A stretch of DNA of 64,000 bases, taken from positions 63,483 to 127,482 of the forward strand of contig CAYVYM010000001.1 of the NCBI GenBank assembly GCA_964455705.1, read 5' to 3'. Of the stretch, positions 1 through 54,670 are shown piece by piece (positions within the stretch are counted from its first letter, which is position 1; each line of letters starts with the position of its first letter). This DNA comes from an uncultured Rikenella sp. (GTDB lineage Bacteria > Bacteroidota > Bacteroidia > Bacteroidales > VadinHA17). The position numbers and the translations under genes were made by a program. The notes under the pieces were generated by a model. That model did no database searches. It was given only the letters and a program-made list of their open reading frames with translations, and was not told the origin of the DNA.

Positions 1-3000
1 AATTCATATCCGTCCATAACAGGCATTATAATATCACTGACAACAAGAATAACATTGTATATCGAAAGTGCTTTAAGTGCTTCATTGCCATTATGAGCGA
101 GGATGATATTATACTCACCGGATATCTCTCCGGCAATAAACCTCCCCATTTCAGTTTCGTCCTCTACAAGAAGTATGTTTGGCAGGGAGTTTTCAGGAGA
201 GCCAAAGACTTCAAAAGTGTTGTGGTCTGTCTTGTACAACTCCTCAGATTCAATTATGCTCTCCGAAATTGATTCTTTCTGATATCTGGTCAGTTCAAGA
301 ACAAACGAATTATACTGTTCCTCATTTGTGTCAAGAAAAAGCCTGCCATGGTGAAGTTCTGCAAGTGAACGTGCCAGAGATAGTCCGAGGCCGGTGCCTT
401 TTTCTCCGGGTTTATTATGGTCAATCTGGTAAAACGGCTCAAAAATCCTTTCACGAAGCCCTTCAGGTACCAGATTACCGTCATTGTTTACCCGTATCCT
501 TATCATGTTTTCACTGTTCGTCGCGGGTTCGAGAAACAGGTCAACCTTTGATCCGGCGTATTTAAGGGCATTTGACAGGAGATTACTGATTATCTTGGTA
601 ATTGCTTCCCTGTCAACAGCCAGATCACAATGATTTACAGGAGAATGCAGTTGCATCGATATCCCCTTTTCTTCACTGTACGGCAGGAACAAATTGAATA
701 TCGACCCAATCAGTTCACAAAGATCTGTCTTGATAAAGTTGAGTCTGAACTTCTCCTTCTCGGTTTTCCGGAAATCAAGCAGCTGGTTGGTAAGGTTCAG
801 GAGCCTGTCAGTATTTCTTTTAATTATTAACAGGTTATTCTCTGTATCCTTTGAATATCTTATCCCAGACCGCAGTATCCTGTCAAGTGGCCCCTTGATC
901 AGAGTCAGCGGGGTACGAACTTCATGAGTGATATTTGTGAAGAAACCGATTTTTGCATTAAGTATCTCCTTCTCTTTATTGGTTTCAATTAAATCTATTT
1001 TTCTCTGATGTTCCAGGGCTTTTCTTTTCAGATAAAAGCTGATCAGCATATAACCAATTGACCCGGCTACAATAATATAAAGTATATAAGCAGGAACAGA
1101 CATCCAGACCGGCGGAGTAATTTTAATACTCAGCCTGGCTTCATCGGTGCTCCATGTTATGCCATCTGTTGAGGAACTAACCCTGAACCTGTATCTGCCG
1201 TGAGCGAGGTTGGTATAATATACCTTTCTGTTACCTGAGATAAGAACCCAATCAGGATCAGAGCCTTCCATCATATATTTATATTGTATCAGATTTGGAC
1301 TGGTAAAAGCGGGAGATACAAAATCAATGCTGCAAGAAGACTGATTATGTTTGAGTGTGATCCGGCTGGTAACGAGAATTGATCTGAAATCAGCAGAACC
1401 TTCGGAATTGATTACATGCTCCTCGCCATTGACCTGGAAGCCGGTAATGTAAACAGGCGGACTATAACTGTTTTCTCTTATGTCTGCAGGGTAAAATGAC
1501 AAAAGGCCGCTGATAGTGCCAAAATACACTTTTCCGTTCTTGTCCTGATATGCTGAGTTATAGCTGAAAGAGTTGTCGAGAAGGCCATCATCTTTGGTAT
1601 ATGTTTTATACTGATTTGTTGAAGGATCGAGTTTGAGGAGACCCCTTGTTGATGTTATCCAGAGATTTCCGAAACCATCCTGCAGCATAGCGCAGTATAT
1701 TGCGAAATCAATATCCCTGCCCGGAACATATCGGGTAACTGCTCCCGTTTCGCCGTCAATATAGCTGAAACCGTTTCCCTCAGTAGTGAACCAGATCCTG
1801 TGGCTGTTATCCTCATAGATTGAGGTGATGTGCTCTCTCGTCAGGTTTTCGTAATCCCCTCTTCCGGATAATATTTGTTCGCAAGTCTGTGATGACCTTT
1901 CATATTTATATAAGCCCCTCCCATAAGTCCCTATCCATATGTTCCCTTTATTATCCTCATATAAAGCATGGATAAATGCGCCGGCAGCCACATCGTTGAG
2001 GAATATGAATGATGAGGTGTTTCGGTCAAAACGGTACATTCCGGTCACGCTTCCTGCATATATTGTTCCTTGTGTTGTTTGAAGGAAGGTGACGAATGAA
2101 TTTGTTTTCAGGCCGCTTTGCCCATCCATTGACTTGAAATGATCCGTAATATTCCCTGAAGGAATATTCAATATGTATATTCCGTTATCATAGGTCCCGA
2201 TCCAGAGGTCGTCGTCATCAACCAGCAATCCCTGGATATTTCTGCTGTCAATTTTGACGCGGTTGTGACCCTCGGTGATACTTGAGAATAACCCTGTCTG
2301 GTAATCTGTCCTGATGAGTCCGGCATCTTCGGTGCCAATCCAGATATTGCCATAGGAGTCTGCCCGTATCTCCCTGACAACATTTCCGTTAAGTGCCCCG
2401 GACAATCCCGTCGGGTAATACTTTTCAAATGGCTTGTTCTCCTGGGGAAGGTAATTGACACCTCCGTAAAAGGTCCCGATCCATACGCCACCTTCCCTGT
2501 CCCTGGTAATGGTACGGACCATATTGTTTGAAAGCGAATACGGATCAGTCCATTCCATTTGAAGGTTCGTAACATAGCCTGTATCCATATTATAAATATA
2601 GATGCCCGATTCAGTTCCTATCCAGATCTCCCTGTCAGTGACCAGACTTGTTGTCCGGATCAGGATATTGTTCCATATCTTATCTTTCTCAAACAGACTT
2701 GTAACCCTTCCGGTATTAGGTTCAAACTTCCTGAGGCCGGCAAGGTCGGTGGTGATTATCAGCCCATAACTATCTGCATCGAGAATGTTCTTCAGGCTGA
2801 CAGAAGCTGATAGTTCTTTTTCGGTAAGAATCTTAAAGCCGGTGAAATTGTCAGTTCTTGCATCATATTTATAGATCTTTCCATCTGTTGCTGACAGCCA
2901 GACATCCCCGGAATTGGTTAAGCTGATGCATTGAGCTGAAAAATATTCGTCAGCGGGATAAGAGCTCAGACTGGCACTAAGTTTATCATACTTGTAGGTC

Positions 3001-3431
3001 CCGGTGAAGGTCACTATCCATATATTATTATTGTCGTCAGCCTTAACATCAAGTACCAGTCCTGTAATCTTCGGATCTTCTGATATAATCGTACAGAAGC
3101 AGTCATTATCCGGCATGTAGTAGCAGATACCTTTCGGAGTACCTACCCAGATCCATCCGTCAACATCTTCGTAAATTGCAGTGATGAAGTTGTTTAACAG
3201 AGAGTTGGAAACCGATGGGTTGTGAAGAAAAGTCCTGAACTGGAAACCATCAAATCGTATCAGACCTTCTTTAGTGCCAAACCACACAAAGCCCCTTCGG
3301 TCCTGCAAACTTGCCATTACGGTATTATTCGACAAACCGTTATCATTCCTGTAATGCCTGAAATAATATGGTCTGCCATTCGTAATAACGGAGAACAGCA
3401 AAAAAATAAGTGATATTAAGAATAACCTCAT
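1..3431 (-). CDS. Hybrid two-component system sensor kinase/response regulator (HTCS), 3' end beyond the window edge
   Basis: Not in the ORF track (no stop in window); translated by hand from ATG 3431. Signal peptide, then MRLFLISLIF...YFRHYRNDNGLSNNTV...WFGTKEGL (beta-propeller sensor), a TM helix, HisKA FFTNITHEVRTPLTLI, HATPase NLLSNALKY and GTGLGLSLA, and receiver ILLVEDE...VSDIIMPVMDGYE in the same frame at the edge. An AraC domain is expected outside the window. Confidence 0.93.
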   Translation of the reverse strand, partial: MRLFLISLIFLLFSVITNGRPYYFRHYRNDNGLSNNTVMASLQDRRGFVWFGTKEGLIRFDGFQFRTFLHNPSVSNSLLNNFITAIYEDVDGWIWVGTPKGICYYMPDNDCFCTIISEDPKITGLVLDVKADDNNNIWIVTFTGTYKYDKLSASLSSYPADEYFSAQCISLTNSGDVWLSATDGKIYKYDARTDNFTGFKILTEKELSASVSLKNILDADSYGLIITTDLAGLRKFEPNTGRVTSLFEKDKIWNNILIRTTSLVTDREIWIGTESGIYIYNMDTGYVTNLQMEWTDPYSLSNNMVRTITRDREGGVWIGTFYGGVNYLPQENKPFEKYYPTGLSGALNGNVVREIRADSYGNIWIGTEDAGLIRTDYQTGLFSSITEGHNRVKIDSRNIQGLLVDDDDLWIGTYDNGIYILNIPSGNITDHFKSMDGQSGLKTNSFVTFLQTTQGTIYAGSVTGMYRFDRNTSSFIFLNDVAAGAFIHALYEDNKGNIWIGTYGRGLYKYERSSQTCEQILSGRGDYENLTREHITSIYEDNSHRIWFTTEGNGFSYIDGETGAVTRYVPGRDIDFAIYCAMLQDGFGNLWITSTRGLLKLDPSTNQYKTYTKDDGLLDNSFSYNSAYQDKNGKVYFGTISGLLSFYPADIRENSYSPPVYITGFQVNGEEHVINSEGSADFRSILVTSRITLKHNQSSCSIDFVSPAFTSPNLIQYKYMMEGSDPDWVLISGNRKVYYTNLAHGRYRFRVSSSTDGITWSTDEARLSIKITPPVWMSVPAYILYIIVAGSIGYMLISFYLKRKALEHQRKIDLIETNKEKEILNAKIGFFTNITHEVRTPLTLIKGPLDRILRSGIRYSKDTENNLLIIKRNTDRLLNLTNQLLDFRKTEKEKFRLNFIKTDLCELIGSIFNLFLPYSEEKGISMQLHSPVNHCDLAVDREAITKIISNLLSNALKYAGSKVDLFLEPATNSENMIRIRVNNDGNLVPEGLRERIFEPFYQIDHNKPGEKGTGLGLSLARSLAELHHGRLFLDTNEEQYNSFVLELTRYQKESISESIIESEELYKTDHNTFEVFGSPENSLPNILLVEDETEMGRFIAGEISGEYNIILAHNGNEALKALSIYNVILVVSDIIMPVMDGYE

Positions 3432-3698: not shown

Positions 3699-4169
3699 AT
3701 GACCCTGATCCCTGATAAAAGAAAACATACTGTCGCCATCGGTTGCGATCCCAATGCTGCAGCCATTAAGGAGATCATTATAGCACAGCTTAATGAGATG
3801 GGATATACAGTTAAGGATTTCGGAAGTGATGATCCGATTTATGCCAGGGTAGCATTCGCAGTTGGGGAAGCTGTTGCAGCACATGAATATGACCGCGGTA
3901 TTCTTTTATGCGGAACCGGTATTGGAATGAGTATAGCTGCAAACAAAGTACCTGGCATTTATGCAGCACTTTGCTCTGACACTTATTCAGCTGAAAGGGC
4001 CATTAAAAGCAATAATTCAAATGTACTGACAATTGGTGCTTTCACCACCGGCACCGAAGTGGCCAGACAGATCGTAAAGACCTGGATGGAAGCGACCTGG
4101 CAATCCGGAACGGCTTCGGAACCTAAAGTAGAATGCTATATGGATTATGCCCGGAGGCACCAGGTTTGA
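3699..4169 (+). CDS. rpiB: RpiB/LacA/LacB family sugar-phosphate isomerase (DerI-like variant)
   Basis: GILLCGTGIGMSIAANKVPG signature. GCDPNA, SNN and SEPKV replace the canonical DHAG, HN and RH..R motifs. Confidence 0.88.
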   Translation: MTLIPDKRKHTVAIGCDPNAAAIKEIIIAQLNEMGYTVKDFGSDDPIYARVAFAVGEAVAAHEYDRGILLCGTGIGMSIAANKVPGIYAALCSDTYSAERAIKSNNSNVLTIGAFTTGTEVARQIVKTWMEATWQSGTASEPKVECYMDYARRHQV

Positions 4170-4197
4170 TCATTTTCAGGATTATTTATAACTACTT

Positions 4198-5061
4198 ATG
4201 AACCCATCGGAAATTCTTAAGCTGGAATATACAGCACTTAATATAAGACGGCATATCTTACGGCTTATCAAAGCGGGTGAGGCAGGTCACGTAGGAGGGG
4301 CACTTTCTACTGTTGAAATTGTGACCGCACTATATTTCAACCTCATGAAGATTGATCCGGGTAATCCAAAATGGCAGCAGCGTGACCGTTTTGTACTGTC
4401 AGCCGGTCATAAATGTCTTGTGCTTTATGCCGCACTTGCCGAGCGCGGATTTTTTGATACCTCCGTTCTTGATACATACGGAGCACTTGACAGTACAATT
4501 CCCGGGCATCCGAATATGCATAAACTTCCGGGGGTTGAAACAAATACCGGAGCTCTCGGACATGGCCTTTCAATAGCCGGGGGAATGGCTTTGGGGCTGC
4601 GAATGGACAAATTTCAGTCAAGAGTCTTTGTTTTAATGGGCGACGGAGAACTGGCTGAAGGATCCAACTGGGAGGCAGCGTCAGCCGCATCAATGCACAA
4701 GATTGAAAACCTTATTGTCTTTGTTGACAGGAACAAGCTTCAGATAAGCGGACCCACCATTGAAGTAATGAGCTATGAACCTCTTGATGAGAGGTGGCGG
4801 TCATTCGGCTGGGGCGTCAGAACTATAGATGGTCACAATCTGGAGTCAATAATAAGCAATGTGAACCAGACTCCTTTTGAAAAAGGCAAACCATCAGTAA
4901 TAATCGCTGATACTGTTAAATCAAAAGGATTAAGTTTTGCAGAGGGTAAGGTCAGTTACCATTACTGGAAGGCAAAGCCGGAAGAGATGGAACAGGCAGA
5001 ACGTGATCTGGACAAAACAGAGGAACATCTGAAGTCAAAAATGGGGAAGATTGAAATATGA
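4198..5061 (+). CDS. Transketolase, N-terminal (TPP-binding) subunit of a split transketolase
   Basis: GHVGGALS, DRFVLSAGH, TGALGHGL and the GDGELAEGSNWEA...VDRN TPP motif. Confidence 0.93.
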   Translation: MNPSEILKLEYTALNIRRHILRLIKAGEAGHVGGALSTVEIVTALYFNLMKIDPGNPKWQQRDRFVLSAGHKCLVLYAALAERGFFDTSVLDTYGALDSTIPGHPNMHKLPGVETNTGALGHGLSIAGGMALGLRMDKFQSRVFVLMGDGELAEGSNWEAASAASMHKIENLIVFVDRNKLQISGPTIEVMSYEPLDERWRSFGWGVRTIDGHNLESIISNVNQTPFEKGKPSVIIADTVKSKGLSFAEGKVSYHYWKAKPEEMEQAERDLDKTEEHLKSKMGKIEI

Positions 5062-5996
5062 TCAATGATTTAAAAGATCCGAGAAAGACCTTTGGAGAGG
5101 CTGTTATTGAAGCTGCAGAGGTTAATCCAGACATTGTGGTCCTTTCAGCTGACAGCAGTTCGGGATCAGGGCTGGCGGATTTCAAAAAAAAATTCCCGGA
5201 CAGACATTTCGAATTCGGAATAATGGAACAGGGTGTCACAGGTTTTGCCAGCGGGTTTGCGACAACGGGTAAGATACCCGTCTTTGCTGCTATTGCTCCA
5301 TTCGTTACTGCACGTAATTTTGAGATGTTCAGGAACGATCTCGGGTATATGAATCAGAATGTAAAAATCGTAGGCCGTTGCGCTGGTCTTACATATGATC
5401 AGCTTGGATCGACACATCACTCTATAGACGATGTGGCCATTATCAGAACGATCCCGGGAGTAACTGTTATCAATCCCGGAGACCCCGTGACTATTAAAAA
5501 AGCTGTCCATGCAATGATACAGCATGTGGGCCCCTGCTATATGAAAATCGGAAACCCCGCGATACCGGTTCTTTACGAGGAGGACGTTGATTTCACTCTC
5601 GGGAAGGGTATTGTTATAAAGGAAGGAAGTGATGTGGTTCTGATAGGAACGGGCACAGTTTTATCAAAAGCAGTGGCTGCCGCAAAGCTTCTGGAGGAAG
5701 CTGGTGTGAGTGTACGCCTGATAGATATCCATACTATCAAGCCTCTTGACCGCGAGCTCATATTGTCTTCGGCCAGGGAAATAGGTAAAATCGTTACCGT
5801 GGAGGAGCATTTTGTTGCCGGAGGCCTGGGCAGCGCAATCGCTGAGCTGTGCAGCCGGGAATATCCGGTAAGAATGAAGATGATCGGCATTGGAGATCAA
5901 TATGCCAGCAACGGCCCTTATGAGGAATTACTTGGTAAGTACGGGCTGCAGCCTGACCAGATAAAAGAATCAGTAATCAATTTTTTAAACAACTAA
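5058..5996 (+). CDS. Transketolase, C-terminal (pyrimidine-binding + C-terminal domain) subunit
   Basis: FEFGIMEQ, GSTHHSIDD, IKPLD and VEEHFVAGGLGSAIAE motifs; ATGA overlap with the upstream subunit. Confidence 0.93.
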   Translation: MINDLKDPRKTFGEAVIEAAEVNPDIVVLSADSSSGSGLADFKKKFPDRHFEFGIMEQGVTGFASGFATTGKIPVFAAIAPFVTARNFEMFRNDLGYMNQNVKIVGRCAGLTYDQLGSTHHSIDDVAIIRTIPGVTVINPGDPVTIKKAVHAMIQHVGPCYMKIGNPAIPVLYEEDVDFTLGKGIVIKEGSDVVLIGTGTVLSKAVAAAKLLEEAGVSVRLIDIHTIKPLDRELILSSAREIGKIVTVEEHFVAGGLGSAIAELCSREYPVRMKMIGIGDQYASNGPYEELLGKYGLQPDQIKESVINFLNN

Positions 5997-6012
5997 TAAC
6001 CCGGGATCATTT

Positions 6013-7317
6013 ATGGAAAACTCTGGCGCAACGAAAATGTATCTTGCACTGGCAGCTTTGCTTGCCAGTGCAGAAATCCTGCTTCTGACAACCGGTAATG
6101 GAAAACTTCCAATATCCGGACTGATACTTTTCGCATTTTTCTTCCTTCTGGCTCTCAGTGCTCAGAAATCGGAGAAATTCAAAGGATTATCCTTTACACT
6201 GCAGATATTTGCATTTGTCTCCTTTACCCTGTACTTCCCGGAAATGTTTACTGACTGGGGCTTTGACACCAATAAACTGATAGTTCCGTCTATACAGGTG
6301 ATTATGTTTGGGATGGGAACGAAACTGAATCTCAGGGATTTCGTCAGGGAATTATCAAAACCCGTGGTTGTTATTGCCGGTACTATAATGGTCTTTGTAT
6401 TTATGCCGCTCGCGGCACTGCTGATAATAAATATCTGGGATTTTCCGCCTGAAGTGGCTGCCGGTATAATCCTTGTAGGCGCATGTCCCGGAGGAGTGGC
6501 TTCGAACGTAATGACATATCTTGCCAAAGGAAACCTCGCCCTTTCTGTAACACTTACCACTTTTGCCACCCTACTGGCACCGCTTGTAACGCCTCTGCTG
6601 ATGATGTGGTTTGCGGGCAAGTTGATTGAGGTAAATGCTGTAAGCATGATGATCAGTATTATCAACATGATATTGATTCCAATATTCGCGGGTATCATTG
6701 TCAATAAGATACTATATGGTAAGCTGGATTGGGTCAGGAAGGACCGGAACATGATTTTGCTTGCAATACTGACTTTCATTGCAGGCCTGATCCTGATATT
6801 CATTCCCTTCCCCGCAATACTTAAATCATCACAAACAGGCCTGATCCTGATTGCATGGGCCGTGTCTATTGTATCAGTCACAATGATAATGGTTCGTCGC
6901 TCTAACGGCCCCGAAGACTGGATGGATAAAGTTCTTCCTAAGCTTTCGCTGAGCGCCATCATGCTGTATATCATCGTTGTGGCAGCACATAACCAGCAAA
7001 CACTGCTTACCATCGGACCGTCTCTCTTCCTTGCGGTCATCCTCCATAATACAATTGGACTGGCTATGGGTTACGGAGCATCAAAAGCACTGCGGTTCAG
7101 TGATGAAGATGTGCGAGCCATAACTCTTGAGGTTGGTCTGAAAAACGGGGGACTAGCCGTAGGTCTTGCCTACGATGTTCTTAAAAGTGCCGCTGCCGCT
7201 CTTGCACCACTCATTTTCGGCACATGGATGAACATAGCCGCCTCCTCCCTCGCCAGCTTCTGGAGTCATAAGGTACCAAGGGTTAAGGAACCCGTGGTGA
7301 AAACCACAGAAACATAA
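6013..7317 (+). CDS. Bile acid:sodium symporter (BASS) family transporter
   Basis: IMFGMGTKL, ACPGGVASNVMTYLAKGNLALSV and EVGLKNGGLA motifs; many hydrophobic helices. Confidence 0.9.
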   Translation: MENSGATKMYLALAALLASAEILLLTTGNGKLPISGLILFAFFFLLALSAQKSEKFKGLSFTLQIFAFVSFTLYFPEMFTDWGFDTNKLIVPSIQVIMFGMGTKLNLRDFVRELSKPVVVIAGTIMVFVFMPLAALLIINIWDFPPEVAAGIILVGACPGGVASNVMTYLAKGNLALSVTLTTFATLLAPLVTPLLMMWFAGKLIEVNAVSMMISIINMILIPIFAGIIVNKILYGKLDWVRKDRNMILLAILTFIAGLILIFIPFPAILKSSQTGLILIAWAVSIVSVTMIMVRRSNGPEDWMDKVLPKLSLSAIMLYIIVVAAHNQQTLLTIGPSLFLAVILHNTIGLAMGYGASKALRFSDEDVRAITLEVGLKNGGLAVGLAYDVLKSAAAALAPLIFGTWMNIAASSLASFWSHKVPRVKEPVVKTTET

Positions 7318-7453
7318 AAAATGTTAATATTTCAATCAAATCCCAAAAATCCCGAGATAATCGATAGTTTTAAATTGTATAAATTTAATTTCGGAGCAAT
7401 TAACCTGATTTTTTACATCTTAATTAAATAATCAAACCACAGGAGGACGAACT

Positions 7454-8497
7454 ATGAAAACCAGGAAACTATATTATTCACTGTGCCTCGCTCTGCTTGC
7501 GGGAATAATTATGTGTACTTCAGTCAGTGCTCAGCCAACTTCACTGACAAAAGATGAGATGCTTTATTACACATCACTCTGGAAGGGAGAGCGTTTTCCG
7601 GACGGAAGACCTAAAGTCTCTGAAGATATGATTCAGAGGATGAGATACGTATCGGTAACTGAGGCCTGGCAGATCCTGAACGGAGCCAGTGATCCTGTTG
7701 AAGGCCAGGGTCCCACGAGTTTTGGTGAATTCAGGAGGCCTACCTATTCCAATCAATATTACGGAGGATTAAAAATGATGAGGGATGAAATCATTATTTG
7801 CGGAAGGGCTTCAACAATACATTTTCTTCCCTATCGTCCCGATCTTAATGGCCTCATTCAGCAGCAGGGAACAAAGGATGGAAGAGGAAGAGGACAGTAT
7901 ACATGGGGAATCGATCAGCTGCAAAACGGGGATGTTTATGTTGCCAATGTATGTGAAGGAATTCTGGATGCATCTCACGTTGGTGATAACCTTGGGACAA
8001 CAATCTGGACCAAGACCGGCAATGGTGCGGTAATCCGGGGAACTCTCAGGGACCTTTACGGAAATCTGAGAGTCAATCCTGAATGGAATGTAATGGTACG
8101 CGATTTCAGGCCGCAGGCCAACAGCTCTAACCTCGTGATAGGAATTAATTGTCCGATACAGGTTGGTTATATAACTGTTATGCCGGGAGATGTTGTTCTG
8201 GGGACACGTGAGGGAGTGGTATTTATTCCGCCTCAGCTCGTGCAGATGGTTGTAGAGACATCGGAGAAAACACGTATGCAGGATGTCTGGGCTCATATGG
8301 GAGTAAAGGCGGGCCGTTTTACCGCTCAGCAGGCAGATGGTGCATATACTCCGGAAATGAACCAGGAATTTACAAAGTGGTTGCTTGACAATGCAGATAC
8401 TATGGGGAAATTCTTCGATGATCCCGGCGCAGCCCCGTCGCCTGAATTTATAAGGGCTTATGCAAAGGAGCGCCAGGAGATGAAACCTCGCCGGTAA
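7454..8497 (+). CDS. RraA/HMG-aldolase-like family protein with a Sec signal peptide
   Basis: GDNLG...GAVIRGTLRD and VTVMPGDVVLG..EGVVFIP RraA-like motifs; N-terminal MKTRKLYYSLCLALLAGIIMCTSVSA/Q. Confidence 0.8.
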   Translation: MKTRKLYYSLCLALLAGIIMCTSVSAQPTSLTKDEMLYYTSLWKGERFPDGRPKVSEDMIQRMRYVSVTEAWQILNGASDPVEGQGPTSFGEFRRPTYSNQYYGGLKMMRDEIIICGRASTIHFLPYRPDLNGLIQQQGTKDGRGRGQYTWGIDQLQNGDVYVANVCEGILDASHVGDNLGTTIWTKTGNGAVIRGTLRDLYGNLRVNPEWNVMVRDFRPQANSSNLVIGINCPIQVGYITVMPGDVVLGTREGVVFIPPQLVQMVVETSEKTRMQDVWAHMGVKAGRFTAQQADGAYTPEMNQEFTKWLLDNADTMGKFFDDPGAAPSPEFIRAYAKERQEMKPRR

Positions 8498-8532
8498 TGT
8501 GTTTGACAGTTTACGGACCTGAATGACTTAAG

Positions 8533-9657
8533 ATGAATAGGCGTGATATCCTGAAGACCCTTGCAGCAGGAGCTGCAGGTGTTGCACTTACAAGATGCAC
8601 CTCTGCCGAAAGAAAAACATCGGATTCCTCTGAACCTGTATATTCCGGACATGGTAAAAAAGCCACATTTGATAAGGTTATCAAACCCTCAAATGTAAGT
8701 CTTATTAAAGGTAATGATGCCCGTGATAACACATTCAATGCACTTAAAAATATAGAAGACGAAATCATGGCTTCCCTTGAGGGTAAGAAGCGCATCCTGA
8801 TCAAACCTAATTTTGTAGTGGTTACTACACCTCTTTGTGCCACAGGTGTCGATACTGTGAGGGGGATACTTGATTTTTTCAAGCCCCGCTTCAAAGGGAC
8901 AATTGAGATAGGTGAGGCAACAGTATCCGGAGCTAAAGGGAGCAACATAGGAACTGAAGGTACTTATGCGGGATTCAGAGATTACGGATATCTGCCCCTT
9001 GAAAAGGAATATGGTGTGAAGCTTACGGACCTTAACCTGGAACCTCATATAACCCATTTTATTTTTAATAGTGACGGTAACAGGCCTCAGCCTATCCGTA
9101 TGATAGCCAAATACCTCGACAGGGATCAATATCTTATCTCTGCCGGGAAGATGAAGACACACAATTGCGTTCTGGTTACCATGTCACTGAAGAACATTCT
9201 TATGGGGGCTCCAAAGAATGACTATAAAACACAGAACGATAAATTCCTCATGCATAGCTGGTCACCCAAGAACATCACACGTGATTTCAGGTTTGCTTTT
9301 ACGAAAGATATGGTGCTGCATTACAATCTTTTCCAGATCGCCCAGATTACCTATCCCGATCTTGGTGTAGTGGATGCATTCACCTCCATGGAAGGTGATG
9401 GCCCTATCGATGGAACCCCGGTAGATACGAGACTTGCACTTGCCAGTACAGACCCGCTTGCTCTGGACTCCCTGGGAACTAAAATAATGGGATTTGATCC
9501 TACCCAGATTCTGTATCTGTCATCGATGAATGAAGCAGGTATGGGGCAGGGCGACCTTGATAAAATCAACGTACTGGGAGCTGATCTGAACGAATGCCTG
9601 TTTAAATTTAAACCTCATTCGATGTTAGCTGAAACATACGGACTGGTGAATGTCTGA
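8533..9657 (+). CDS. DUF362 domain protein with twin-arginine signal (possible lipoprotein)
   Basis: MNRRDILK...ALTRC; ILIKPN, KMKTH, SLKN, MEGDGPIDG and DPLALD motifs. Confidence 0.85.
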   Translation: MNRRDILKTLAAGAAGVALTRCTSAERKTSDSSEPVYSGHGKKATFDKVIKPSNVSLIKGNDARDNTFNALKNIEDEIMASLEGKKRILIKPNFVVVTTPLCATGVDTVRGILDFFKPRFKGTIEIGEATVSGAKGSNIGTEGTYAGFRDYGYLPLEKEYGVKLTDLNLEPHITHFIFNSDGNRPQPIRMIAKYLDRDQYLISAGKMKTHNCVLVTMSLKNILMGAPKNDYKTQNDKFLMHSWSPKNITRDFRFAFTKDMVLHYNLFQIAQITYPDLGVVDAFTSMEGDGPIDGTPVDTRLALASTDPLALDSLGTKIMGFDPTQILYLSSMNEAGMGQGDLDKINVLGADLNECLFKFKPHSMLAETYGLVNV

Positions 9658-9712
9658 TCTGTACCTGTTTAATGATTGCTGTAACAAAGAGAACTCTTAA
9701 ACAAAGAAGAAA

Positions 9713-10894
9713 ATGAAAGCATCAGAAAAAGAATTAGTGGTGGGAAGACGGAATGCCCTGAAGATGATAGGCCTGGGTTCTGCAGCCATGCTTTCTGTGG
9801 GATTCAGGGATATTCAGGCCGTGGAACCCCTGGATATGAGACCCAAAACAAAGCCTTTCATGAAGGAGGGCAACAGTCCTGTAGCCTTTACCACAGGCAC
9901 CGACAGGCAACAAATGCTATTCGAAGTAATCAGGCCCTTTGAGAATGAGATCAGGGCCGGACTGAAAAAGAAGCAACTGGTAATCAAACCGAATATGGTT
10001 GTTACCAACAAAGAGCTTTGCGCAACTCATAAGGACGCATTGGGCGCTCTCCTTGAATATCTTAAACCTATTTACAAAGGTCAGGTCATTATTGCTGAAT
10101 CAAGCTCAAGCGTGAACTCCTCCGATGGCTTTAAAAACTACGGTTATACTGAGCTTGAAAAGAACTATAACGTAAAGTTTGTTGACCTTAATTCCACCGG
10201 ACCGGGTAAACCATATTATATAATAGACAGGAATCTTCATCTTGATAAAATTGAAGTTGCTGATATTTTCGCAAATCCTGATTATTATGTCATATCGATA
10301 TGCCGGCCCAAGACCCATAATTCGGTTGTGATGACCGGGGGTATCAAGAATATTATTCTGGCTGCTCCGCTCAATCCGGGTGCTGTTAACGGAGGCAGAC
10401 CGATAAGCTACAAACGGAATATGCACTCGGGCGGATCACGCTTTCTGCATTATAATATGTTCCTTCTGATGCAGAGTATCAGGCCTGACTTCACGATTAT
10501 AGACGGTGTTGAGGGTATGGAAGGAAATGGTCCGATCGCAGGCACACCGGTCGATCACAGGATTGCACTGGCCGGGTTTGACTCTGTTGCGGTCGATAGT
10601 ATGTGTGCACGACTCATGGGTATTCCACTCGAAAATATTGGCTATTTAAATTACTGTGACGCGGCCGGTATAGGAAATATGGACCGTGACAGGATAGATA
10701 TCATTGGAGACAGGGATCCGGACAAAAGTGTCATTGCATACCAGATGGGTTCAAATATCGACCGTCAGCTTGAATGGAAAGAGCCATTAAATCTGCCTGG
10801 ACAGGGTCAGCGGCCTTCACAACCCGCACCATCTGCTCCAACTGCACCGGCAGCCCCTGCACAGTCGGCAAACCCGACAGCACCACAGAAATGA
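9713..10894 (+). CDS. DUF362 domain protein with twin-arginine signal and Pro/Ala-rich C-terminal tail
   Basis: GRRNALK signal; VIKPN, RPKTH, GIKN, GMEGNGPIAG and DSVAVD motifs; paralog of the preceding gene. Confidence 0.85.
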   Translation: MKASEKELVVGRRNALKMIGLGSAAMLSVGFRDIQAVEPLDMRPKTKPFMKEGNSPVAFTTGTDRQQMLFEVIRPFENEIRAGLKKKQLVIKPNMVVTNKELCATHKDALGALLEYLKPIYKGQVIIAESSSSVNSSDGFKNYGYTELEKNYNVKFVDLNSTGPGKPYYIIDRNLHLDKIEVADIFANPDYYVISICRPKTHNSVVMTGGIKNIILAAPLNPGAVNGGRPISYKRNMHSGGSRFLHYNMFLLMQSIRPDFTIIDGVEGMEGNGPIAGTPVDHRIALAGFDSVAVDSMCARLMGIPLENIGYLNYCDAAGIGNMDRDRIDIIGDRDPDKSVIAYQMGSNIDRQLEWKEPLNLPGQGQRPSQPAPSAPTAPAAPAQSANPTAPQK

Positions 10895-10940: not shown

Positions 10941-12275
10941 GTGAACGAAATCAAGTTATTCCTCAGTACCCTGTTATCTTCGCACGACAAGGAGGGCAGT
11001 GCAGCTTCAATAATCCCGGAGGATAAAGAATATACTGACAGGGTTCTCAACACCCCATTATCCGGTGATCATTTCACTTTCCTGAAAAACAATATAAGGT
11101 ATGTGGGTGTCACCCGGAACTTCCGCGAGATCATTGATTATTTCAAGACCCCACCTGGTGAAACACCCGCGGGTTTCAAGATCCGGTATGTATTAAGTGA
11201 GAGGGATGTTTTGCGTGTTGATCTTGTCCGTAACATTTCATATGACAAAAACGGCATCAGGCGTCCGACAAAAGTATTATTCTCAGCAGACAGCGCAAAT
11301 CCGTATGAGATAGTTTCGGTCAGGAACATTATTTCAAATCTCACTTGTAATCCCGGTATAATCTATGACTTGTTTATCAATAACCCTGAAGCCAATGTGG
11401 GAAACAAGTTTAAGACGAGGGATGAGGTGATGCAGGAGATAGGAAATATACTTGGCCCCGGCTGTGATATCTCCGTTGAACTTAACAATCCGTTTAATGA
11501 TTCGGTCAGTGAACTGATCGAAGAGGCAGAAAGATTCAGGGAAATGCTCTCACCATACCGTGTTGTGATTAAAGTTCCGCATACCGGGCCGGTCAATAAA
11601 GACAATCTCAATGAGCTTCTTGACGGCGACAAAAAGTTCCGGAGGGCTTATGACGCGGGAACGACCAGCGATAAGTTCAGGGGACATAATCTGGCGCTCC
11701 TGTTGCGTGATCATGGCTTCCGCATTAATTTCACACTGATGTTTGAACCTTATCAGGCTGCCCTGGCGCTTCAGGCAAGACCTTATTTTATAAATTCATT
11801 CATCAGGCACCGTGGCTCTGCCAGTAAAACGATCAAAAATTATCTTAACGAGTTTAACAGGTCAAATGACGACAAGTTCCTTGAAGATCTGAAGACATTC
11901 TTTATTGACAAGGATTTTATCCCTCCGTCAGCCAATGGGCTGAGCCCTGGTGAAGTTAAAAAGACAGCCGAGAGGATACTTAAATACCGGAACTATGAAA
12001 ACCATGAGGGTCGTGATGATCTTGACAGCGTCCGTCACAACCTCAGAGTGCTCCGTTATGCCAATCTTCCTGACACCCGTTTGATCATCTGCAGTATGGA
12101 AGGGGAAGAGAATTATCCTGCCATTGATAAACTCCTTACAGAACCTGAGTTCATTGATATGGCAGACCGGGTTGTGGTAACAGCCGAGCCGGAATACCTT
12201 GCCAAATTCACCACCACTCCCCAGGTGATTTCATACCAGAGGAGATTCTTAAACGCGGCCAATGGGCAACAGTGA
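10941..12275 (+). CDS. Transaldolase/fructose-6-phosphate aldolase family protein, extended form
   Basis: FSADSAN, LTCNPGI, ISVE, VIKVP (Schiff-base Lys) and INFTLMF motifs; about 110 extra N-terminal residues; GTG start. Confidence 0.78.
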   Translation: MNEIKLFLSTLLSSHDKEGSAASIIPEDKEYTDRVLNTPLSGDHFTFLKNNIRYVGVTRNFREIIDYFKTPPGETPAGFKIRYVLSERDVLRVDLVRNISYDKNGIRRPTKVLFSADSANPYEIVSVRNIISNLTCNPGIIYDLFINNPEANVGNKFKTRDEVMQEIGNILGPGCDISVELNNPFNDSVSELIEEAERFREMLSPYRVVIKVPHTGPVNKDNLNELLDGDKKFRRAYDAGTTSDKFRGHNLALLLRDHGFRINFTLMFEPYQAALALQARPYFINSFIRHRGSASKTIKNYLNEFNRSNDDKFLEDLKTFFIDKDFIPPSANGLSPGEVKKTAERILKYRNYENHEGRDDLDSVRHNLRVLRYANLPDTRLIICSMEGEENYPAIDKLLTEPEFIDMADRVVVTAEPEYLAKFTTTPQVISYQRRFLNAANGQQ

Positions 12276-12313
12276 TATTCATGAGTTATAAAAATTAATC
12301 AATAAGCAGAACA

Positions 12314-13201
12314 ATGGAAAAAAAGCTGATGGGAGTTTTTGCGCCTATTACAACTCCGTTCGATGAAAAGGGAGAGGTGGCATACGATAAGCTCAGGGAA
12401 AACATGAATTTCTATGCGAAGTCCGGGCTGAAAGGATACCTGGCCCTGGGCTCCAACGGCGAGAATAAGAGCCTTAGCAACAGCGAAAAGGAGAAGGTCC
12501 TTGAAACAATAATCAAAAACAAGGGAAGTGAACAGGTTGTCATGGCCGGTTGCATTTTTGAATCAACCAAGGAGACCATAGAATTCGCGAAAATTGCACA
12601 GGGACTGGGTGCAGATTTTATAACTCTCCTGCCTCCCTCGTATTTCAAGAAGGAGATGACTGACCCTGTGCTTCTGAAGTACTTTACTGACGTGGCTGGC
12701 AGCCTTACAACCCCATGCCTGGTATATAATGCCCCTCAGTTCTGTGGGGGAACAACACTGTCAGTCAGCCTGGTAAAGGAGCTGGCAAAACACCCCAACA
12801 TAAAAGGTGTAAAAGATTCTTCTACCGGCAATATTGAAAGTTTCCTGCTCGCAGTGAGAGATACGTTTAATGTAATGCCCGGATCTGCCAATTTCTTTGT
12901 GAACGGACTCATTATGGGTGCACCCGGAGGGGTCATTTCCCTGGCCAATGTATTTCCGGAAATCACATGCAGACTGTATGAGCTGACAGTAAGCAAACAG
13001 TATGAAGAAGTCTTTAAGCTTAATGAAAAGGTAATTCAGCTGAACAAGGCCGTCTCAGGCACCGGAGGTGTTGCTGCAGTGAAATATGCAATGGACCTGG
13101 CCGGACTTTATGGCGGACTTCCGAGACTGCCGCTGCTACCTCTTGGAGAAGAGGTGAAGAAGAAAATCGAAGACTATCTTAAAAAAGAAAATCTGATATG
13201 A
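12314..13201 (+). CDS. Dihydrodipicolinate synthase (DapA/NAL) family aldolase
   Basis: APITTPF, LGSNGE, VYNAP, GVKDSS and PRLPLLPL motifs. GSNGE and the gene context suggest a keto-acid aldolase rather than true DapA. Confidence 0.9.
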   Translation: MEKKLMGVFAPITTPFDEKGEVAYDKLRENMNFYAKSGLKGYLALGSNGENKSLSNSEKEKVLETIIKNKGSEQVVMAGCIFESTKETIEFAKIAQGLGADFITLLPPSYFKKEMTDPVLLKYFTDVAGSLTTPCLVYNAPQFCGGTTLSVSLVKELAKHPNIKGVKDSSTGNIESFLLAVRDTFNVMPGSANFFVNGLIMGAPGGVISLANVFPEITCRLYELTVSKQYEEVFKLNEKVIQLNKAVSGTGGVAAVKYAMDLAGLYGGLPRLPLLPLGEEVKKKIEDYLKKENLI

Positions 13202-14163
13202 AAAAAGTACTTGTGAATGAGAAAGTAAGCCCTGATGCTCTCGATATTCTGAGAAAGGCATCGGAAGTCGTATATATACCATCAGGTGATCATGCCGAGA
13301 TTATCAGAATGCTTAATGATATTACAGGCATTATGCTTGATACTACAATTAAGTTCACTGGTGAGCTCATGGACTCCGCCCCGAATCTGAAGGTGATAAG
13401 CCGGACCGGGACAGGGGTGGATAATGTGGATGTTGAGGCTGCAACTCAAAGAGGAATAATGGTCTTGCATACTCCCGACGCCAATACGGTGACGGTTGCT
13501 GAACATACAGTATCAATGATCGGCGCACTGACCAAGCACTTATTGTTTCTTGATAAGGAAACAAGGGAGGGTAAGTTCAAAACGGCCAGACGCTATTATC
13601 TGCCCGTTGACCTCGATGGAAAAACACTGGGCATTATCGGGTATGGCAGGATCGGAAAGCAGGTTGCAAAGAAATGTATGGCTGCTTTCAATATGAAAGT
13701 GATCATATATGACCCGTATATCAGTGACGATGTTGTTGCCCCCGGAGTCATAAGGTACAGCAATGAGGAAGATGTTTATAAACAGGCAGACGTTCTCAGC
13801 ATACATGTGCCGCTCACTGACGAGACGAAAAAACACCTTGGAGAAAGACTTCTTTCACTGATGAAGCCATCAGCATACCTTATTAATACAGCAAGAGGAA
13901 GTATTATTGACGAAGCGTATGTCATTAAAATGTTAAATGAGGATAGGCTGAAGGGCGCTGCCTTTGACGTTCTCACCAATGAGCCTCCGATGGATAATGA
14001 GGAATTCCTCGATAATCCCAAAACAATAATCAGTCCCCATACGGCTGCGCTTACACATGAATGCACCATCAGGGTGGCATGCGAGGCCGCTGCAGGTATT
14101 GTTGATTACCTGGAAGGAAGAATGCCTAAATCCATTTTTAACAGAAAAGGACTGGGTTTGTAA
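13198..14163 (+). CDS. D-isomer-specific 2-hydroxyacid dehydrogenase
   Basis: SRTGTGVDNVD, GIIGYGRIG, LINTARG, FDVLTNEP and SPHTA motifs. Confidence 0.92.
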   Translation: MKKVLVNEKVSPDALDILRKASEVVYIPSGDHAEIIRMLNDITGIMLDTTIKFTGELMDSAPNLKVISRTGTGVDNVDVEAATQRGIMVLHTPDANTVTVAEHTVSMIGALTKHLLFLDKETREGKFKTARRYYLPVDLDGKTLGIIGYGRIGKQVAKKCMAAFNMKVIIYDPYISDDVVAPGVIRYSNEEDVYKQADVLSIHVPLTDETKKHLGERLLSLMKPSAYLINTARGSIIDEAYVIKMLNEDRLKGAAFDVLTNEPPMDNEEFLDNPKTIISPHTAALTHECTIRVACEAAAGIVDYLEGRMPKSIFNRKGLGL

Positions 14164-14182
14164 ACAAATTAGCTGAACGATA

Positions 14183-15241
14183 ATGAGCACAGATAAAAAA
14201 TACGACTTGATAGGCTTCGGTGAAGCGATGATAAGGTTCACCGCGCCTGACCACGCCAGGCTTGAACAATGCACCCATCTGCACATTGCCATTGCAGCTG
14301 CCGAGTTGAATGTGACCGTAAACTCTTCAAGACTCGGACTTAAAAGCGCCTGGGTATCAAAGCTTGTTGATATATGGTCAGGTCAGTATATCATTAATAA
14401 AGGCAGGGAGCACGGAGTTGACATGTCAAACGTGATACTGCTGCCTTTTGACGGGAAGGGAACCGTAAGGAACGGTCTGTGCTATCTTGAGGTTGGCATA
14501 GGACCCAGGGCCAGCAAACAGATGTATGACAGGGCTCATTCAGCTATCAGCCTTATTAAACCTGGCGACATCGACTGGGAAAAGAGACTCTCTGAGACGA
14601 AATGGTTCCACACCACAGGTATCACTACGGCCATATCTGACAATGCAGCCGCTGAAGCAATTGCATCGCTCAAAGCCGCCAAAAAGCTGGGTGTAACCAC
14701 AAGCTTCGACCTGAACTTCAGATCAACATTATGGAGTTCCGAAAAAGCCATTAAGGTTATGAAGGAGGTTATGCCTTATGTTGATGTTATTATAGGTAAT
14801 GAGGAGGATTTTGAAAAAATGCTGGGAATAAAGGCTGAAGGCGGAACTGAAAGCTATGCTGACCTTGATCCTGAAAGCTATGAGACAGTGGCCCGGCAGG
14901 TCGTCAGGCAGTTTCCCAATGTACAGGTTGTGGGGACAACTCTGAGACATGTAAAGACTGCTCTTCTTAATGACTGGCAGACAGTAATGCTTTTTAAAAA
15001 CAAATTCTATACATCAAGAAAGTACGAGAATCTTGAGATCCTTGACCGGACCGGTGGAGGTGACAGCTTTGCATCAGCATTGATCTGTTGCATGCTTGAA
15101 GGAAAAGATCCACAGGAAACGATTGAGTTCTCGGCAGCTTATTCAGCTCTCTGTCACGGTTTTATGGGTGACTGGAACTGGGCTACAAGAGCTGAGGCAG
15201 AGAGGGTAATGAAAGGCGGAAGTGCAAGAGTGATCCGCTGA
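14183..15241 (+). CDS. kdgK: PfkB family sugar kinase, 2-keto-3-deoxygluconate kinase-like
   Basis: FGEAMIR, YDRAHSA, WFHTTGIT, SFDLNFRSTLWS, IGNEED and DRTGGGDSF motifs. Confidence 0.82.
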   Translation: MSTDKKYDLIGFGEAMIRFTAPDHARLEQCTHLHIAIAAAELNVTVNSSRLGLKSAWVSKLVDIWSGQYIINKGREHGVDMSNVILLPFDGKGTVRNGLCYLEVGIGPRASKQMYDRAHSAISLIKPGDIDWEKRLSETKWFHTTGITTAISDNAAAEAIASLKAAKKLGVTTSFDLNFRSTLWSSEKAIKVMKEVMPYVDVIIGNEEDFEKMLGIKAEGGTESYADLDPESYETVARQVVRQFPNVQVVGTTLRHVKTALLNDWQTVMLFKNKFYTSRKYENLEILDRTGGGDSFASALICCMLEGKDPQETIEFSAAYSALCHGFMGDWNWATRAEAERVMKGGSARVIR

Positions 15242-15370: not shown

Positions 15371-18300
15371 ATGAGAAAATTCACAACTCTGCTTGTACTC
15401 CTGTTTTTCGCAGGTTTGCAGGTAGCAATTGCTCAACGGACAATTACCGGTAGAGTAACCAAAACCACTGACGGCACCTCGCTTCCGGGGGTTGTTGTCG
15501 CGGTTAAAGGGACTACTTCCGGGGCTCTAACTGATGCTGACGGCCGGTTTTCCGTCACGGTGCAGAACAATCAGGCTGTGTTACAGTTCTCCTTTATCGG
15601 GTTTAATACAAAGGAAATACCGGTTGGTACTCAAACCATAATTGAGGTTTCCCTTGATGAAACAACGGTAGAGATGGGAGAAATTGTTGTAACAGCCCTT
15701 GGTATTAAACGGGAATCCAAAAAAATCGGGTACTCCGTAACATCTGTTGAAACGGCAGATCTGACGACAAACAAGACTATCAACATGATGGAGTCGCTTA
15801 CAGGGAAGATTGCAGGTCTGAATATTACACCTCCGGCTGCCGGTGCAGGCGCCAGTACGCAAATACGTTTGCGCGGACAGGTTGCATTCGCAGGGGCTAA
15901 CAACGCTCCGTTGCTTGTAATTAACGGCCTTCCGATGGACCAGAATGCACAAAGTGCAAATGGTTATGGAGCATCACGCGACCTTGGGGATGCCATGACC
16001 AATATTAACCCGGAAGACATTGAGAACATGACTGTACTGAAAGGTGCAACTGCCGCTGCAATTTATGGTTCACGTGCAGCCAACGGTGCAATACTCATTA
16101 CTACTAAATCCGGCCGGAGAAGTCAGGGTATCGGTATTGAATTTTCTTCCAGCGTGACTGTACAGGAGGTTTTGGACTTCTTTGAGTTTCAGGATGTATA
16201 CGGACTGGGTGTTGCCGGACAGAAACCGGTCAGTGCGGCTAATGCCGCCGGCAATGGCCAGTTTGGCTGGGGCGCAAAGTACGATGGCGAGCTTGTCCCT
16301 GCTTTTGACGGATCAATGATACCTTACGAATTTCAGAAAAACAGGCTGAAGGATTATTTTAACACCGGGACAGTTTTGGCTAATACTGTCGCTTTTTCAG
16401 GCGGTAATCAAAAAGGAAGCTTCAGGGCATCTTATGCCAGAACCGACACAAAAGGCATTGAACCGACAAATGAATACATAAGGAACATTGCCAATCTGGG
16501 TGTCACTTATGACATTACTGAAAAAGTCAATTTTTCAATGAACGTTAACTATAACAATGAGAATTTCATAAACCCGCCGCAAATCGGAACACAGGGCGAA
16601 GGTTCAATGAACTTCCTGACCCGGGTTTCTCTATCCATTCCTTTGGACATCATTGAAGCTTCTGCAATAAATCCTGCAACAGGAACTGAAATGCCGGTTG
16701 CCGGTTGGACTACAATCAACAATCCCTACTATACCCAGCAGGTGGGTCAAAGTTATATCAGGGAAAGAGACCGTTTTCTGGGGACAGCTACCGTAAGATA
16801 TGATATCACTGACTGGCTGTATGCCCAGGGAAGGTTTAACTACGATTTTCTGGTTGGATTTAACGAATCCAAGAGACCTGGCGGGATAGGAACCAGTCAG
16901 CCAAAGGAAAGTGATGGTACCTGGAAAGGAACCTACAGTGTATTTGAAGCCAATGAATCTAACGTAAATGCTGATTTCCTCGTAGGTGCAAACAAAGAGT
17001 TCGGAAAGTTTTCTGTTGACGCAAGTTTTGGCGGAAATACCTTCAGAAACGAATATAAAAGGTTTGACATAACCGCCACACATTTTACTGTCAGAGACTT
17101 ATACTCCATATCAAACGGTGTTACTAAAACACAGGATTTTGATTATAGACAAAGCCGGGTAAATTCACTTTACGGACTGGCTGAGTTTGGCTATAACTCG
17201 ATGTTTTTCCTCAATTTTACGGGTAGACAAGACTGGTTTTCCGTATTAAATCCGGCAAGCAATTCCAAGTTTTATCCGTCTGTGTCCGGTAGTTTCCTGT
17301 TCTCACAATTGTTAACGAACCAGAGTTGGCTTTCATACGGTAAGCTCAGAGGTTCCTGGGCTCAGGTAGGTAGCGCCAATGGTGTAAACATTTATGAGGG
17401 GAACCTGACTTATAATATAGCCAATAATCAGTTCAATGGTCAGACACTGGCAACTATAGCGGGCACAGGTGCACCTAATCCGAACCTGCAACCATTTACT
17501 GTAACTGAAAAAGAAATAGGTTTGGAGTTGAGGTTATTCAATAACAGGCTGATTTTTGATGTAGCAGCCTTTGACAAGGTGACAACTGACCAGGTATTAA
17601 ATGTTCAGCTTTCCAATGCATCAGGGTATAGTACTTCCAAGAAAAATCTAGGCTCATTAAAGAACCAGGGTATAGAATTTATGATAGAGTATACACCAAT
17701 AGAAACCAGTAATTTCAGATGGACAACTTCCTGGAACAATACCTATCTGAAAACAGAAGTACTTTCTGTTGGCGTAGACCCTGACGGAACGCCAATTGAT
17801 GATTTGCTTGTAATTAACTTTAATGGTACCGGCATGGAGTTTCTTGGAGAATTACATTACACGGTAGGAATGCCAATGAACCAGCTGTATACAAGAACAT
17901 ACCTGAGGAATGATAATGGGGACATTCTTGTCAGGGACAACGGCAGATTGCTGGGAACGCCCGATGTGATTCCTGTAGGAAGTTCTATACCAAAACATAC
18001 CGGCGGATGGAGCAACACTTTTGCCTACAAAAATCTTACCTTCGGCGTGTTCTTTGACTACAAGCTTGGAGGTACAGTGCTGTCATCCACATTGATAAAC
18101 ATGACAAGGCAGGGACATTCAATGCTTTCACTCGAGGGTCGTAGAGAAGGAGAAAACGGCCTGATATTTCCCGGTGTTTATCAGTCAAGCGGACTCCCTA
18201 ACACCACCGCGGTTACCGACCTGCAAGGGTTTTATGGAGATTACAGAAATCTTCAGATCGGGGATCCTTTCACATTTAAGTCTGATTTCCTTAAGTTGAG

Positions 18301-18535: not shown

Positions 18536-18540
18536 GGGTC

Positions 18541-21845: not shown

Positions 21846-21904
21846 GATTGGTACAGAAAAAATATTACCAAAAATTAAAATAATTGACTGGAAAGGAGAA
21901 GATT

Positions 21905-23341: not shown

Positions 23342-23382
23342 GTAACCTTTTTAATGATAAAAAAACCTAATCCTCAAGAATT

Positions 23383-54471: not shown

Positions 54472-54499
54472 ACAGCGCTGGTCTTTGTCAATACCAGTA

Positions 54500-54628: not shown

Positions 54629-54670
54629 TCCTGCCTTATAGTTTTTGACTATCTTCATGGACCAAACCAA

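Follow-up and report, generated by a model that had tools for sequence, protein, structure and literature searches.

Enzymes of the LarA family (Lar_N, PF09861) are 2-hydroxyacid racemases and epimerases that depend on the nickel-pincer nucleotide (NPN). They are the described system with which we compare two adjacent genes, D362a and D362b, located in a 64,000-nucleotide stretch of DNA from an uncultured Rikenella sp. (contig CAYVYM010000001.1, positions 63,483 to 127,482; hereafter the window). Both genes encode proteins of DUF362 (domain of unknown function 362, PF04015), a large family to which the literature searched assigns no function, in agreement with the initial annotation of the locus, which had called it uncharacterised. 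In LarA, NPN is bound by Arg75, Lys184 and His200, and catalysis involves Asp72, His108, His174 and Lys298; the NPN-binding pair of the malate racemase Mar2 consists of K181 and H197 (PMC7583248; PMC12611868), the counterparts of LarA K184 and H200 (PMC7583248). Lys184 tethers the nucleotide, His200 ligates the nickel and His174 is one catalytic base; from the offset in numbering, Mar2 H171 would be the equivalent of LarA H174. A tie between the two families has been recorded, as DUF362 and the DUF2088 of LarA share the Pfam clan CL0471 (PMC11770544).

Which proteins use NPN in organisms that make it but have no LarA is an open question in the field (PMC11796402), and NphT, published in 2026, is one answer to it (PMC13524815). 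NphT is described as an NPN-dependent aldo-keto reductase, found through the neighbourhood of lar genes, which holds NPN with a Lys/His pair and transfers hydride between sugars; as on LarA, the cofactor is seen on it as a +450 Da adduct (PMC13524815). That study deliberately set aside LarA homologues, and DUF362/PF04015 appears neither in its main text nor in 10 of its 12 supplementary files, the remainder of which might list it (PMC13524815). NphT has a TIM-barrel fold and no reported twin-arginine translocation (Tat) leader, whereas D362a and D362b are predicted to fold like the N-terminal domain of LarA and carry Tat leaders. A further comparison is offered by two Gfo/Idh/MocA-family members, GFOR and AAOR, which shuttle hydride between sugars on tightly bound NADP. 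The glucose-fructose oxidoreductase (GFOR) of Zymomonas mobilis and the aldose-aldose oxidoreductase (AAOR) of Caulobacter crescentus are both periplasmic enzymes with a Tat leader, and the AAOR gene shares a putative operon with that of a gluconolactonase (PMC4628093). They provide the closest working analogy to the pair, with an SGL lactonase recurring beside D362a-type genes as the gluconolactonase stands beside AAOR; however, their Rossmann fold is unrelated and their NADP is not covalently bound, whereas for D362a and D362b a covalent NPN is only proposed.

D362a (P0001; window positions 8533..9657, forward strand) encodes a protein of 374 aa and D362b (P0002; 9713..10894, forward strand) one of 393 aa. 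The initial annotation had recognised two adjacent DUF362 proteins, and both the coordinates and the family proved exact: the Pfam DUF362 profile, with a gathering cut-off of 24 bits, is matched by D362a with 100.9 bits (E 1.3e-28) and by D362b with 126.1 bits (E 2.4e-36). All six motifs that it had listed (KPN, LCAT, K.KTH/PKTH, KN, MHS and MEG.GP) are present in both proteins. It had also found neither a ferredoxin nor a CxxCxxC domain, and no Fer4 family of Pfam matches, and no CxxC pattern occurs, in either sequence, which rules out an Fe-S cofactor for the pair. In this respect D362a and D362b differ from canonical DUF362 proteins, which have an inserted 4Fe-4S ferredoxin domain or an adjoining polyferredoxin gene; such an insertion is seen in another DUF362 protein of the same genome (L002:5899-7011). 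The pair shares with the canonical form the family and the invariant K, N, T, D/E, K-x-H, K-N and D residues, and is set apart from it by the twin-arginine leader, by its place in a polysaccharide-utilisation locus and by an identity of only 24-32% to the canonical copy of the genome.

D362a and D362b share 33% identity in an alignment of 348 residues (E 9e-55). A recent tandem duplication was considered and rejected, because D362a is nearer to its Planctomycetota orthologues (50-57% identity) than to D362b; by these identities the two proteins are old paralogues.

The new result concerns the fold. The AlphaFold2 models of D362a and D362b have pLDDT (predicted local distance difference test) values of 90.8 and 87.8, respectively. 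For the D362b model, the eleven best Foldseek matches in the PDB all belong to the LarA family, and VIA-align superposed it on 12 LarA-family entries with Z scores of 14.7-17.3 and a root-mean-square deviation of 3.0-3.5 over 213-224 residues, the next match scoring 5.5. The D362a model was compared independently of Foldseek with 48,161 chains, of which five reached Z >= 8, all of them from the LarA family (13.8-17.7), followed by a match at 5.1. The suggestion of the initial annotation that the fold might resemble LarA is thus borne out, as LarA-family chains alone reach Z >= 8 for either model. The span of LarA covered by both models is approximately 34-302, i.e. the N-terminal, NPN-binding (cofactor) domain. 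The best reading of these predicted structures is that D362a and D362b are each homologous to this domain. Searches of PDB sequences with D362b and with the orthologue profile returned chance matches only and no LarA chain.

In both proteins, highly conserved residues form a motif that can be placed, weakly, on the cofactor site of LarA. In D362a it reads K208-T-H210-x9-K220-N221...H241 (9154..9255, forward strand), and its columns are invariant or nearly so in two alignments (A1 and A3); in D362b it reads K200-T-H202-x9-K212-N213...H238 (10310..10426, forward strand) and is conserved across 70 diverse sequences, with K200, K212 and N213 invariant and T201, H202 and H238 at least 90% conserved. 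The genome encodes one LarA homologue (L005:4433-5713), whose H157, K167 and H183 align with Mar2 H171, K181 and H197. When profiles of 70 DUF362 sequences and 28 LarA homologues were compared with hhalign, the local mode set H202 and K212 of D362b on the H157-x9-K167 of this homologue, in a register that agrees with the structural superposition despite the weak statistics. The KTH-x9-KN...H motif of DUF362 would accordingly lie on LarA His174, Lys184 and His200, and by analogy with the D362b alignment H210, K220 and H241 of D362a would take the same three places. The loop before H238 of D362b is 10 residues longer than in the LarA family.

What D362a and D362b have in common with the LarA family is the predicted fold, the clan CL0471, the H-x9-K part of the motif, with its final His placed more tentatively, and the presence of lar genes in the genome. 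They differ from it in the spacing between the motif's Lys and its final His, which is 20-25 residues as against 15 in LarA, and in their Tat leaders and predicted periplasmic destination; the literature searched contains no link between the Tat pathway and the LarA family.

The leader of D362a (8533..8610, forward strand) begins MNRRDILK, and that of D362b (9713..9823, forward strand) runs ..VVGRRNALKMIGLGSAAML..IQA/VEP. The twin arginines noticed in the initial annotation are strongly conserved: R3 and R4 of D362a are invariant in 22/22 aligned orthologues from Bacteroidales, Ignavibacteriota and Planctomycetota, and D362b orthologues keep GRRxxLK, together with the hydrophobic h-region, in 8/8 cases. 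Among the 150 best representatives of the D362b clade, 33 have a long N-terminus, 31 of which show RR followed by any residue and two hydrophobic ones within the first 45 residues, and another 72 have short, leaderless N-termini. The Pfam TAT_signal profile is passed by D362a only (23.3 bits; cut-off 22.7), and the genome encodes TatC and two TatA proteins. On the strength of this conservation, the twin arginines of both proteins are beyond chance, and the leaders predict export to the periplasm via the Tat pathway.

The lipobox-like Cys pointed out in D362a (Cys22) does exist, but as a lipobox it is weak: the candidate reads LTRC, with Arg at position -1, instead of L-x-[GAS]-C, and a Cys occupies this column in 6 of 22 orthologues. 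A possible signal peptidase I site, TSA/E, lies in the same leader, and a string resembling the putative lipobox, GRCTSA, occurs in the neighbouring cupin-SGL protein. D362a may be lipid-anchored. The Pro/Ala tail reported for D362b was confirmed as a Pro/Ala/Gln-rich segment of low complexity and low pLDDT (residues 361-393; 10793..10891, forward strand), with similar tails in 8/8 orthologues. Of the representatives of the D362b clade (P0134-P0263), 14 long ones (424-521 aa) were scanned, and 11 of these join DUF362 to a C-terminal FlgD_ig / Por_Secre_tail domain of the type IX secretion system (T9SS) type. Nine of these 11 have the RR leader as well, a combination of Tat and T9SS signals that is unusual.

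Based on these observations, we tentatively favour, as a possibility that falls somewhat short of probable, a reading in which D362a and D362b are Tat-exported enzymes that are loaded in the cytoplasm with a hydride-shuttling cofactor of the NPN type and whose substrate in the periplasm is a sugar, lactone or aldonate. We infer the cofactor, the export, the substrate and the reaction from the genes and their context, the leaders, the fold, the conservation of the motif and the gene content of the genome. LarB, LarE and LarC would make the cofactor in the cytoplasm, where it would be attached covalently to Lys220 of D362a or Lys212 of D362b, and the folded holoprotein would then cross into the periplasm through the Tat system. 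According to this proposal, the proteins would have a Tat leader because the cofactor cannot be installed outside the cell. In the periplasm, where free NAD(P) is missing, the tethered cofactor would accept hydride from its substrate (a sugar, sugar lactone or aldonate) and donate it back, either in a redox-neutral epimerisation or isomerisation or in a ping-pong shuttle from aldose to lactone like that of GFOR. The product would pass to the neighbouring exported lactonase and Tat-exported dehydratase, would be imported by an SBF-family transporter, and would be cleaved by the kinase, aldolase and transketolase that the cluster encodes. D362a and D362b may be the first LarA-like enzymes working outside the cytoplasm.

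A wider proposal, which we consider rather unlikely, is that DUF362 as a whole is a second branch of the LarA superfamily, consisting of the N-terminal domain only and using NPN. In that case the pair would represent the first NPN enzymes of the extracytoplasmic space, having received the cofactor in the cytoplasm before folded export by Tat, with relatives passed on via the T9SS-type C-terminal domain, and their role would be a hydride chemistry on sugars that needs no NAD and takes place at the cell envelope. The present data nominate DUF362 as a further candidate NPN user, one related to LarA. If true, the proposal would name a client for the lar genes of genomes that have no LarA, give a concrete reason for the twin-arginine leaders of DUF362 proteins, and add the periplasm and the surface of polysaccharide-degrading cells to the places where cofactor-tethered hydride chemistry occurs. 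Should NPN be refuted, a LarA-like fold with a conserved Lys/His pocket would still mark a defined active site in a domain of unknown function.

Export by Tat might also be explained without any cofactor. D362a and D362b could be periplasmic hydrolases, lyases or isomerases, or else proteins that bind sugar acids, sent through the Tat system by fast folding or by oligomerisation in the cytoplasm. We regard this as improbable. It is favoured by the fact that the cofactor is only predicted and by the behaviour of a third exported DUF362-like protein of the genome (L003:5417-6589), which has a Tat leader and a partial DUF362 match only, and whose orthologues (L150-L154) alternate between Tat and Sec leaders; the export route is therefore not always linked to a cofactor in this superfamily. 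However, this subfamily lacks the KPN and KTH-x9-KN motifs which D362a and D362b keep, the RR pair of the latter is invariant across phyla, and their fold is that of a cofactor-binding domain. The absence of the catalytic motif also makes the L003 subfamily irrelevant to a link between Tat and NPN, and its Tat-leader members in lar-free genomes, considered as a possible refutation of such a link, were set aside.

The genome contains six DUF362 genes, and the lar genes to which the initial annotation pointed, larB, larC and larE, are all present, each passing its equivalog cut-off. In a separate region of the genome (L001; G000:C4:76000-92000, positions 4260-9748), a 311-aa DUF362 protein and a 522-aa polyferredoxin are encoded divergently from larC-larE-larB and a WbqC-like gene. 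In a sample of 401 genomes drawn evenly from the phylum, LarC was found in 41, DUF362 in 72 and Lar_N in 45; DUF362 is present in 35 of the 41 LarC-positive genomes and in 12 of the 17 LarC-positive genomes without Lar_N. Four genomes, from three families, have a DUF362 gene adjoining larC, and three of these genomes (G169, G210 and G218) have no Lar_N at all: in G169 a DUF362-polyferredoxin pair directly precedes larC-(larE)-larB, and in G210 and G218 a DUF362 type of 490 aa precedes larC-x-larB. A control cyanobacterium likewise has DUF362, LarB and LarC and no Lar_N. A cytoplasmic DUF362 subfamily of about 370 aa, with members 61-88% identical, was observed in four families (f26, f28, f39 and f48; L131-L137); it occurs in a conserved methylmalonyl-CoA-mutase / UbiA / DUF362 / EamA context in LarC-positive genomes, several of them without Lar_N.

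For the orthologues of D362a, 43 genomes of the 80 loci retained from the scan described below were searched, and 37 proved to have LarB, 42 Lar_N and 19 LarC. Among the Bacteroidota with an orthologue, 13/16 have LarB and 13/16 LarC, as against a phylum background of 23/201 for LarB (counted in a sub-sample of 201 genomes) and 41/401 for LarC. As no D362a orthologue occurs in any of the other 400 genomes of the phylum sample, an unbiased cross-tabulation of orthologues against lar genes is impossible.

Several observations weigh against NPN, and some of them speak for another explanation, namely that D362a and D362b are Tat-exported DUF362 enzymes with a different cofactor, e.g. a metal ion (Ni, Fe, Mn or Zn) acquired in the cytoplasm. 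Its ligands would be the conserved His and Asp/Glu residues, possibly together with a modified Lys, and Tat export would avoid mis-metallation in the periplasm. We consider this explanation doubtful. With respect to structure, the C-terminal substrate domain of LarA (Tyr294, Gln295 and Lys298) has no counterpart, the structural alignments stopping at about residue 302 of LarA and the proteins being 374 and 393 aa long with their leaders, and the Lar_N profile (PF09861) has no match in either protein at E <= 0.001. Statistically the local hhalign match is weak, with E 0.0027 for one comparison and a probability of 11%, and H238 of D362b falls on H183 of the genome's LarA homologue, the equivalent of LarA His200, only in global mode, with a probability of 2%. 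Position Arg75 of LarA, which contacts NPN, is not kept, being Gly105 in D362a and His106 in D362b, and that of His108, which probably corresponds to the GTH motif, is occupied by Ser132, with the near-invariant Glu129 three residues earlier. The loss of Arg75 and His108 is a point in favour of a non-NPN cofactor, as are the acidic residues E128/E129 and D281/D264, near-invariant in the DUF362 alignments. The two-histidine racemase mechanism of LarA cannot simply be transferred to D362a and D362b, since only the N-terminal domain is covered, and His108, Arg75 and the substrate-binding C-terminal domain are missing.

The gene content of genomes raises further objections to NPN. The LarA homologue of the genome itself already accounts for its lar genes, and the co-occurrence counts given above are confounded by shared ancestry. 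Of the 72 DUF362-positive genomes of the phylum sample 37 have no LarC, and 22 genomes of high quality have DUF362 and none of LarC, Lar_N and LarB. In 8/8 of the lar-free genomes examined (L142-L149), a DUF362 gene whose product is 48-64% identical to the lar-adjacent copy is followed by a polyferredoxin gene, and the same K..KxH-x9-KN-x12-H motif is kept; the motif alone therefore does not imply NPN, and its retention suits the non-NPN alternative. Two observations in Planctomycetota also count against NPN: LarC was found in just 2 of the 22 genomes with a D362a orthologue, and a closed Phycisphaerae chromosome (L073) carries an orthologue but neither LarB nor LarC, the second of which suits the non-NPN alternative as well.

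Against a non-NPN cofactor stand the DUF362 genes inside the lar operons of the three genomes without Lar_N, the enrichment of LarB and LarC in orthologue-bearing Bacteroidota (13/16 versus a background of about 10%), and the alignment of the invariant Lys with the tethering Lys of LarA. Moreover, bona fide Lar_N proteins are themselves found without the other lar genes: in the 201-genome sub-sample, LarB was also missing from 6/6 genomes that have Lar_N with an intact motif and no LarC. The absence of lar genes thus does not discriminate cleanly between the two cofactors, which softens the objection raised by the lar-free DUF362 genomes.

The scarcity of LarC in Planctomycetota was dropped as a refutation of NPN use, since strong Lar_N homologues and LarE are retained in these genomes, as is LarB in most of them (20/22). 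In four closed Phycisphaerae/Sedimentisphaerales chromosomes (L098-L100 and the genomes of L048, L055, L073 and L083), no LarC was detected with either PF01969 or TIGR00299, and LarE is present in 4/4 and LarB in 3/4, together with strong Lar_N homologues. The combination of LarA and LarE without LarC in Phycisphaerae hints at either a nickel insertase not yet known or a cofactor free of nickel. The LarB genes of these chromosomes are always in a TsaD-LarB-NAD(P)HX-dehydratase arrangement.

Orthologues of D362a with identities of 50-96% occur in Bacteroidales, Ignavibacteriota and many Planctomycetota, and are all named just 'DUF362'. A scan restricted to one genome per species gave 244 relatives, from which 80 loci were retained. 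The complete cluster with both paralogues is confined to eight close Bacteroidales/Rikenellaceae loci. This constancy, the presence of a gene for an RraA-like protein upstream in nine loci, and the single LarA-N-like domain without the second domain that closes the active site of LarA, would suit the view that the proteins are non-catalytic partners of exported neighbours (the RraA-like protein or the Tat-leader dehydratase), or form an obligate heterodimer with one active subunit. We think this very unlikely, as every invariant residue is kept in both paralogues, each has a Tat leader of its own, and D362b is absent from the locus of the D362a orthologue in 71 of the 80 loci, most of which also have no RraA. 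In one Bacteroidetes metagenome-assembled genome (L014:8933-11158), two D362a-like DUF362 genes stand in tandem beside two GH10 xylanases. Because of this tandem and of the 71 loci without D362b, an obligate D362a-D362b heterodimer is unlikely as a general rule.

Returning to the sugar-directed activity that we favour, the neighbours of D362a orthologues were annotated at 23 distant loci, two genes to each side. SGL lactonases were found in 5/23 and PTE-family proteins in 2/23 (together 7/23), at most two genes from the orthologue, and SGL-like matches occur in 14 of the 80 loci. GH95, GH51, GH39, GH10 or GH127 glycosidases are also among the neighbours; RraA together with an enolase-family gene was seen at one of the 23 loci and a DUF5648-PMT_2 protein at five. 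This DUF362 clade alone has 4,116 clusters with representatives matching at E <= 0.001. A search of the ESM Atlas returned only DUF362 clusters, and among the longer fused forms of DUF362 a single, uninformative sulfotransferase fusion was found.

In the window, D362a and D362b are part of one co-directional cluster, with short gaps between its genes, of a Bacteroidales polysaccharide-utilisation locus. Divergent from the cluster, a hybrid two-component regulator is encoded on the reverse strand (3..3431); it runs past the start of the window, and its AraC domain lies in the adjoining upstream region. All following genes are on the forward strand. An RpiB-family isomerase, a transketolase split into N and C halves and the SBF-family transporter (3699..7317) are conserved in the close Bacteroidales loci, and a gene for an RraA-like protein with a Sec-type leader (7454..8497) is located directly upstream of D362a, a position that it also has in the nine related loci. 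Downstream of D362b are genes for a TAL/FSA-like protein, a DHDPS-family aldolase, a D-2-hydroxyacid dehydrogenase and a KDG-kinase-like PfkB protein (10941..15241), followed by a SusC/SusD-like outer-membrane pair (15371..20136), an enolase-superfamily protein resembling galactonate and mannonate dehydratases (20313..21845), and an exported bicupin protein with a cupin-SGL lipoprotein of the gluconolactonase family (21884..25311).

The enolase-superfamily protein is extended at its N-terminus by about 65 residues, which include a twin-arginine motif (NRRSFLRRAAMGG), and therefore this putative sugar-acid dehydratase appears to be exported. The cluster thus combines exported steps (lactonase, dehydratase, RraA-like protein, cupins and DUF362) with cytoplasmic cleavage steps, which fits the sugar-acid context proposed in the initial annotation; the Tat-leader dehydratase, the SGL lactonase, the KDG-kinase-like PfkB and the DHDPS-family aldolase are all nearby. 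The 444-aa TAL/FSA-like protein (10941-12275) matches its family weakly (E 2.5e-11, residues 115-288) and no NCBIfam entry, and is conserved in four close loci.

Just upstream of the window (L004; G000:C1:55000-63500), genes beside the regulator encode a CBM9 protein, an aldo-keto reductase and a protein of 606 aa whose C-terminal part belongs to DUF362. Proteins combining DUF362, CBM9 and dockerin were reported in a metagenome paper of 2017 (PMC5742341). Farther downstream in the window, genes for a corrinoid-binding protein, a pterin-binding methyltransferase and a protein with a MetH-activation-like domain (53803-56211) lie between polysaccharide-utilisation loci that hold GH115, GH43, GH3 and GH51 genes, and might together make up an O-demethylase system acting on methylated uronic acids.

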